The position numbers were made by a program, and so were the translations under genes. This document shows, piece by piece, positions 5,580-6,123 of a DNA stretch of 7,336 nt (within the stretch, counting starts at the first letter, position 1; every line of letters begins with the position of its first letter). Origin of the DNA: a virus (Duplodnaviria > Heunggongvirae > Uroviricota > Caudoviricetes); the IMG/VR virus record IMGVR_UViG_2700989509_000019, positions 1-7,336 of that record; one strand, 5' to 3'. The notes beneath the pieces are model-generated. The model made no database searches, was not told the origin of the DNA, and worked only from the letters and a program-made list of their open reading frames with translations.

Positions 5580-6123
5580 TAAACAGTATGTATATCATAG
5601 GTTATTAATTGTGAGTTTTTCGGTGTGTTATTTGTTTGTTTGATGTTATGCTTTTGCGCCCCAAAAGGTTGTTTAGATGTATTTTATCAATTGATTTTCA
5701 ATATCGTTTAATAAAGAAAAATTAAGCAAGCTGGATGTTGGTTTTTTGTTAATTGAATGGTTCTAATAATGTTTTTTTACTGTTGTTGAATGTGACTTGA
5801 TAAGAAATGCAAGTAAAAATGATACTCTTTTTATTTTAAATTCAAACGGTTGACATATATATAGCAAGAGGTTTCAGGTGCGTTGTAGTGAGTTTATGTT
5901 AATAAAAAGTATAGTAAGCGTTGAAAAATGTAACTTTGAAATACGTTAGAATAAAAAACAATATACATATAATAATTTAATCTTAAATGAAATTTATTAA
6001 AATTTGCAAACTATAATTTTGTGTATAAAAATATAAATGCACATCATCCTGATTATGATTGTGTATTTAATTGGTTGTTATTTGACTGCTATCAACTTGT
6101 TTTAATTTTATGATAGGTGCAAG
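5580..6123 (+). promoter_or_regulatory. AT-rich upstream regulatory region of appY, with candidate promoter(s) and likely nucleoid-protein (H-NS-type) binding DNA
   Basis: About 540 bp with no ORF and extreme AT content, including A/T tracts and many TATA-like hexamers. AppY expression is known to be H-NS repressed and induced in stationary phase and anaerobiosis. I could not pick a unique -35/-10 pair with confidence. Confidence 0.4.

Follow-up and report, generated by a model that had tools for sequence, protein, structure and literature searches.

The AT-rich spacer before appY at a lambdoid prophage end very probably is the silencing and regulatory DNA described as the tfaX/appY promoter island of Escherichia coli K-12

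What is the role of more than half a kilobase of extremely AT-rich, ORF-free DNA placed immediately before a prophage-borne transcription regulator? The window analysed here (7,336 nucleotides) covers the right-hand end of a prophage of the lambdoid type, in which such a spacer separates the remnant of a tail fibre assembly gene (tfa) from appY. The original prediction, made from the sequence alone, regarded this gap as a long leader and as the kind of DNA on which H-NS nucleates, noted that AppY is repressed by H-NS, and suspected alternative promoters or an unannotated small RNA within it. The neighbourhood is organized as follows:

57-905, C-terminus of gpJ, a tail gene
938-1597, lom, a tail gene
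1656-2975, tail fibre gene
3363-3638, minus strand, 91-aa ORF of no assigned function, adjoining the next ORF
3701-5062, minus strand, 453-aa ORF, EspK-like by its match to an NCBIfam model
5442-5579, plus strand, C-terminal remnant of a tail fibre assembly gene, tfaX-like (Pfam Caudo_TAP)
5580-6123, no strand assigned, AT-rich, ORF-free intergenic spacer, the putative appY regulatory and silencing region
6115-6119, plus strand, Shine-Dalgarno sequence AGGTG, read from the sequence, 4 nt upstream of the appY ATG
6124-6873, plus strand, appY, AraC-family activator of 249 aa (Pfam HTH_18 and HTH_AraC)

The remnant comprises 45 codons and corresponds to positions 89-130 of the 131-position Caudo_TAP model (E 9.6e-19). 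Its stop codon forms the upstream edge of the AT-rich spacer, and the full-length tfa genes of intact prophages and phages stop at the identical position. The 453-aa ORF aligns along its full length with the NCBIfam model of EspK, a type III secretion effector (918.8 bits, with a cutoff of 934), and displays leucine-rich-repeat similarity to SspH, IpaH and YopM; a Pfam search of this ORF returned no match. Such an EspK-like effector module implies that the source of the window was probably an attaching-and-effacing E. coli. The module sits directly upstream of appY, and the order espK, tfa remnant, appY is absent from the complete E. coli genomes in our collection: matches from the appY side end at 5454, inside the remnant, and genomes with the espK module run instead into dinI and an integrase adjoining dusA. 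The tfa remnant looks like the recombination joint of two prophage ends. We rejected one Rfam candidate here, the small RNA IS009 at 5374-5545 on the plus strand, which lies mostly over the remnant and scores 77.4 bits against a gathering score of 117; the match probably reflects the similarity of one tfa gene to another and not an RNA gene. Among the tail genes, the segment 2400-2700 of the tail fibre gene reaches 70-72% GC and encodes collagen-like triple-helix repeats (Pfam Collagen, E 5e-17). Between gpJ and lom, a GC-rich hairpin with a T-run behind it (about 925-950) resembles an intrinsic terminator; it lies within a weak Rfam match to Atu_C8 at 839-958 on the plus strand (24 bits, E 0.24), which is probably due to chance. 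At the other end, all matching genomes annotate appY as such, and downstream of it lies ompT, encoded on the minus strand and represented by its 3′ end. The DNA between appY and ompT (6874-7122) is also AT-rich, with a GC content of 32%, and its K-12 counterpart is listed as a separate H-NS-bound promoter island, 583602_323.

The gap before appY is 544 bp long, bounded by the stop codon of the tfa remnant on one side and the appY ATG at 6124 on the other. At 25.2%, its GC content lies below that of the window (44.6%) and of the tail genes (55.7%), and the 544-nt stretch with the lowest GC content of the whole window (24.3%) begins at 5680. The longest ORF in any frame has 34 aa and a TTG start, so that the description of the gap as about 540 bp of AT-rich, ORF-free DNA proved accurate. 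TpA steps occur at 11.6 per 100 bp, compared with 3.0 in the tail genes, and 40% of the bases sit in A/T-only runs of at least six. The A- and T-tracts noted in the prediction are present as well. Relative to composition-preserving shuffles, tracts of at least five number 10 against 5.2 ± 2.1 (2.65% of shuffles reach 10) and those of at least four number 19 against 13.6 ± 3.1 (a count matched or exceeded in about 6% of shuffles); the excess over composition is thus modest. Support for helical phasing of AA/TT steps is borderline: the power maximum lies at 11.0 bp and is equalled in 5.1% of shuffles. High A+T content together with TpA steps and A-tracts is the sequence character of H-NS targets, and the spacer has it. 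A search for repeats yielded only short pairs of low identity, as AT-rich DNA would give. The plus strand of the spacer is also skewed (G 17.1% versus C 8.1%; T 41% versus A 34%), and this cytosine-poor strand is the non-template strand both for phage late transcription and for appY.

The comparison with E. coli K-12 places this DNA at a well-studied locus. From 5454 to 7336 the window is 99.1% identical to MG1655, where the corresponding copy lies between tfaX and appY in the cryptic prophage DLP12; the K-12 literature is therefore applicable to the window. The locus is the same as the tfaX/appY island of Panyukov and Ozoline (2013), Masulis et al. (2015) and Bykov et al. (2020). Both copies are flanked by a tfa remnant, appY and ompT, whereas the upstream neighbourhood differs, with the espK effector module in the window and ybcY/tfaD in K-12. 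Within the spacer there are only five differences, namely a T-run at 5615 that is one T shorter here and SNPs at 5910, 5944, 5962 and 6088, and the published start sites fall on sequence identical to that of K-12 except for one base. The feature has already been described in the literature, and its interpretation by the original prediction is essentially right.

Of 5426 complete E. coli genomes, 835 (about 15%) carry the spacer, almost always as a single full-length copy; its 849 places in these 835 genomes included no copy at a second locus. All copies are at least 98.5% identical, and in 713 of the 835 carriers the identity is at least 99%. In 833 of the 835 genomes the whole spacer is joined to appY. 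The same holds for two complete phages, Kati and PhiR68_2, which have the order tfa, spacer, appY, ompT with 99.5-99.8% identity and carry the cassette after the tail-fibre-assembly gene, near the integrase end. The DNA upstream of the tfa stop, on the other hand, differs by strain, being a full tfa gene, a ybcY methyltransferase gene, insertion sequences or, in the window, the 453-aa gene. A shared spacer, appY and ompT next to variable upstream DNA indicates that the three travel as one cassette. In one scan of species-representative genomes, full-length appY was found only in E. coli records, save for an identical copy in a metagenome bin labelled Planococcaceae, which is probably contamination; the sole other match was a distant AraC-domain match in Alcanivorax.

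To read the K-12 data onto the window, we equated the appY ATG at 582904 in the older K-12 numbering with 583681 in NC_000913.3 and 6124 here; the anchor at 582904 follows from the sigma-S probe IG582284_582903, which ends just before the appY ATG. The hexamers assigned below to published starts are our own reading of the sequence. With this conversion, the spacer holds the following known and candidate elements:

5658-6673, no strand assigned, stretch orthologous to the K-12 promoter island 582438_1016, tfaX/appY (PMC3661553, Table 1)
5684-5712, plus strand, distal sigma-70 promoter-like sequence TTATCA-17-TTTAAT, chosen on sequence grounds from within a SELEX-chip peak of RNA polymerase (PMC3946193)
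5747-5762, plus strand, ArcA-box-like direct repeat TGTTAATTGAATGGTT, a weak candidate with 3 mismatches to TGTTAATTAAATGTTA
5899-5979, minus strand, antisense starts at -145 (5979), -214 (5910) and -225 (5899) (PMC4469952)
5975-6011, plus strand, appYp, with -10 TAAAAT (5998-6003), a poor -35 ATTTAA (5975-5980) and the start at -113/-114 (6010-6011)
6004-6043, plus strand, promoter seen in a reporter plasmid, with -35 TTGCAA (6004-6009) and -10 TAAAAA/AAAAAT (6026-6032)
6037-6105, plus strand, 22-codon ATG ORF (MHIILIMIVYLIGCYLTAINLF) within the untranslated regions of the -114 and -85 transcripts
6087-6099, plus strand, proximal sigma-S-dependent promoter with hexamer TGCTAT (TACTAT in K-12) and the start at -25 (6099)

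H-NS occupancy of this DNA is well documented in K-12. Island 582438_1016, whose equivalent here takes in about 550 bp of the appY coding sequence, is H-NS-bound ‘according to all studies’, all three ChIP-chip data sets reporting binding at the tfaX/appY spacer (PMC3661553), and purified H-NS shifts a K-12 fragment equivalent to about 5798-6242 in electrophoretic mobility shift assays (PMC7054387). Repression of K-12 appY by H-NS is stated in several papers in passages that cite Atlung 1996 (PMC7054387, PMC3798270, PMC4676285), and ArcA is thought to activate the gene through anti-repression (PMC3798270, PMC4676285). On near-identical DNA, then, both the proposed H-NS-type sequence and the repression of AppY find experimental backing. 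The manner of silencing is less settled. H-NS binding in vitro was unchanged by mutagenesis that raised or lowered expression (Bykov et al.; PMC7054387), a result that leaves the respective shares of H-NS and promoter interference in dispute, and neither a nucleation site nor a pair of upstream and downstream regulatory elements has been mapped for appY (PMC7054387). In our own scan, the H-NS consensus TCGATAAATT was not enriched: allowing up to two mismatches, the window contains 8 matches against 9.8 ± 2.9 expected, and the spacer has none with up to one mismatch and only two with two mismatches. This motif is not obligatory for H-NS binding. We infer that H-NS spreads from unmapped sites and not from a consensus nucleation site.

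The suspicion of alternative promoters was likewise well founded, K-12 having sense starts at -25, about -81/-85 and -113/-114 and antisense starts at -145, -214 and -225. The start at -113/-114 was identified by RNA-seq (PMC7054387, PMC4469952), those at -81 to -85 (6039-6043) in a reporter plasmid (PMC4469952), and the sigma-S start at -25 is published from in vitro work (PMC7054387, PMC4469952, PMC3141248). For the reporter-plasmid promoter, the eLife paper describes an activating change of TAAAAA to TAtAct found by Bykov et al. The antisense starts are weak and are known from primer extension on a dual reporter plasmid and from chromosomal qRT-PCR; their products are stimulated by nalidixic acid, and the authors propose a ‘novel RNA’ (PMC4469952). 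The term leader, on the other hand, does not suit the gap as a whole. The mapped 5′ untranslated regions in K-12 are 25-114 nt long, which leaves the greater part of the 544 bp as upstream DNA with a regulatory or silencing role.

Does the spacer hold more promoter-like motifs than its base composition dictates? At 4.0 per 100 bp, -10-like hexamers are about 20-fold denser than in the tail genes (0.21 per 100 bp), yet their number (22) is that of mononucleotide shuffles (22.2 ± 5.1). A second scan gave 4 against 5.6 expected, and full promoters number 5 against the 5.8 expected from shuffles. Judged by simple hexamer criteria, AT-richness alone accounts for the excess of promoter motifs, in line with the criticism voiced in the eLife paper. 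The spacer is orthologous to a listed promoter island and is tied to horizontally acquired genes through its place at a prophage end and its occurrence in 835 of 5426 genomes and two phages; RNA polymerase binding with little productive transcription is reported for the K-12 copy (PMC4469952, PMC3661553, PMC3946193).

One of the few differences from K-12 touches a mapped promoter. Position 6088 is the second base of the -10-like hexamer lying 7 nt upstream of the sigma-S start, which reads TACTAT in K-12 and TGCTAT in the window and phage Kati; G is present at this position in the window, in Kati and in 9 of 16 sampled copies. Judged by its hexamer, the G variant would be expected to weaken the proximal sigma-S promoter relative to K-12, and the regulation of this allele may therefore differ in detail.

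Several further regulators converge on the same DNA. In vitro, sigma-S polymerase shows a preference for the intergenic probe IG582284_582903, and in stationary phase the wild type expresses 11.4 times as much appY as an rpoS mutant (PMC3141248). RcdA SELEX recovered the spacer more often than any other clone (PMC3535384); the spacer also coincides with an anaerobic Fur ChIP peak (PMC4676285), and its RNA polymerase SELEX-chip peak is flagged HNS (PMC3946193). DpiA represses appY, and ArcA, sigma-S, RcdA and Fur also act on its expression; anaerobic induction was not reproduced with the fusion of Derdouri et al. Motif scans added little to this picture. The ArcA-box scan returned one match in the window, and 25 of 200 shuffles (12%) give at least one; the RcdA box TTGTNNACA is not enriched (30 matches, 29.5 expected), and the scan with the Fur box consensus gave zero matches. 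The AppY motif ATGSCWGM does not occur in the spacer, which thus gives no sign of autoregulation.

Could the spacer act chiefly as RNA? If the 544 bp were a true long mRNA leader, transcription might begin, for example, at the 5684-5712 element and yield a leader of about 405 nt; control of appY would then lie in the folding of this RNA, in a small upstream ORF or in pairing with a small RNA. TTATCA-17-TTTAAT has indeed been proposed as a promoter on the strength of the SELEX-chip peak (PMC3946193), the 22-codon ORF lies close upstream of appY, and folds of the untranslated regions contain a local hairpin at about 6034-6069. Every reported sense start, however, falls between -25 and -114, and the distal part of the spacer holds 13 of its 15 SNPs and several indels. 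The 22-codon ORF lacks a Shine-Dalgarno sequence and both of its SNPs (6058 and 6088) alter an amino acid; it is probably incidental. We folded 16 stretches from both strands, 115-144 nt long and for the most part 140-nt windows, and obtained z-scores relative to shuffles of -0.91 to +1.47; on the plus strand, with -0.52 to +0.83, the windows fold no better than shuffles. Rfam yields no match at E up to 1 in 5580-6123. We therefore regard a long leader as extremely unlikely. An independent small RNA gene, most plausibly antisense and divergent from -145, -214 or -225 towards tfa, has in its favour the nalidixic acid-stimulated antisense products detected by primer extension and chromosomal qRT-PCR (PMC4469952), as well as the minus-strand sequences GTTACA-17-TACTTT and TACTAT that precede the -225 and -214 starts. 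Weak bidirectional initiation is nevertheless expected from composition alone. A scan of 5300-6300 for terminator-like sites returned none on either strand, the minus strand folds no better than shuffles (z -0.91 to +1.47), no Rfam family is matched, and a common T/C polymorphism at 5910 falls on the -214 start or within the -10 of the -225 start. Taken together, these observations make a small RNA gene very unlikely, and the tests gave no support to this part of the original prediction.

A different reading sees the greater part of the spacer as phage DNA in decay, AT-rich by mutation bias, on which H-NS binding and promoter motifs are passive, with a real promoter region only in the proximal 160 bp or so. 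Among 16 aligned copies, a small sample in which total divergence is only about 1%, SNP density in the spacer (2.76 per 100 bp) exceeds that in appY (1.47) and resembles that in the 3′ end of ompT (2.8); among the regions compared, the value is highest in the appY-ompT spacer (4.0). The proximal 158 bp (5966-6123), which carry the mapped promoters, account for only 2 of the 15 spacer SNPs, and the indels are located in T-runs and a TTTG repeat. This distribution suggests that constraint is confined to the proximal part, whereas SNP density in the distal part (5580-5960) looks near neutral. Natural strains also tolerate rearrangement of the region: 14EC033 has an IS1 inserted near the spacer start (locus 1675-2372), N18-04097 has an IS1 in place of missing DLP12 DNA from emrE to 161 bp before an appY that is also frameshifted (locus 1787-2484), and in Z1323CEC0019 the upstream flank is replaced by IS1203 (locus 5692-6905). 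Motif counts that match the composition expectation and the strong depletion of C on the plus strand (G 17%, C 8%) point the same way. On the other side, the whole spacer has stayed joined to appY in nearly every carrier and in both phages, A/T tracts and 11-bp phasing slightly exceed the composition expectation, and the sample is small and little diverged. Decay and silencing, moreover, overlap and are not mutually exclusive, since H-NS silencing needs AT-rich DNA and not specific motifs. Decay as the main account of the spacer is possible but doubtful. It is also unlikely that the distal two thirds (about 5580-5960) does more than support H-NS, by giving rise to an antisense non-coding RNA from 5899-5979 or to a leader of about 405 nt from the 5684-5712 promoter, and that the common A/G difference at 6088 uncouples appY from sigma-S in part of E. 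coli.

We consider it very probable that the spacer is the silencing and regulatory region of appY and the same DNA as the K-12 tfaX/appY promoter island. For this interpretation, composition, ORF absence, identity with K-12, motif statistics, phage carriage and the weak constraint were computed here, and H-NS occupancy, start sites and regulators come from K-12 papers; given the near-identity of the two sequences, the present allele would be expected to behave as that of K-12 does. In the mechanism that we envisage, 75% A+T, TpA-rich DNA with A-tracts would serve as a platform for H-NS binding and spreading, with bound DNA reaching from some 470 bp before the ATG to some 550 bp into appY. H-NS would keep the weak promoters at -114, about -85 and -25 almost silent during aerobic exponential growth, and induction would be brought about by factors that displace or bypass it: ArcA by anti-repression in anaerobiosis and sigma-S RNA polymerase at the proximal promoter in stationary phase. 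RcdA would have a positive effect, Fur an anaerobic one, possibly by relieving silencing, and DpiA would repress. The dense promoter-like hexamers on both strands, a product of composition, would bind RNA polymerase and support weak, mostly unproductive bidirectional transcription. As to origin, the spacer would have reached E. coli in a moron-like cassette shared with appY and ompT and placed behind a lambdoid tail-fibre-assembly gene.

The classic H-NS-silenced regions of acquired regulators are bgl, proU, the ler promoter of the LEE, and hilA/hilD of Salmonella. The appY locus appears analogous to these in that AT-rich DNA upstream of and into the gene is silenced by H-NS. In the classic regions the DNA is curved, and environment-responsive regulators counter-silence rather than recruit polymerase in the classical manner. 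Anti-repression by ArcA would be a parallel to such counter-silencing at appY (PMC3798270). Unlike the classic regions, appY has no mapped pair of regulatory elements or nucleation site, and the consensus is not enriched. A second likeness is to the morons of lambdoid phages, such as bor and lom of lambda and the effector loci downstream of tail fibre genes. The appY cassette resembles a moron in being an autonomous, host-expressed unit of low GC content (25-32%, versus 56% in the tail genes) beside the end of the late operon and the attachment site, and in its presence in the complete phages Kati and PhiR68_2. It differs from the classic moron, with its short promoter-terminator pair, in having a far longer silencing or regulatory region of 544 bp and no terminator-like site in the scanned interval 5300-6300.

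The appY locus is already a standard test case for H-NS silencing and for promoter islands. To this the window adds a polymorphism in a -10 hexamer, a new upstream neighbour, espK, and an explanation of the promoter-motif excess by composition. AppY ties the prophage to acid resistance, respiration, biofilm formation and RpoS stability of the host, and the way in which its gene is silenced and released from silencing can therefore serve as a model of how phage regulators become domesticated.
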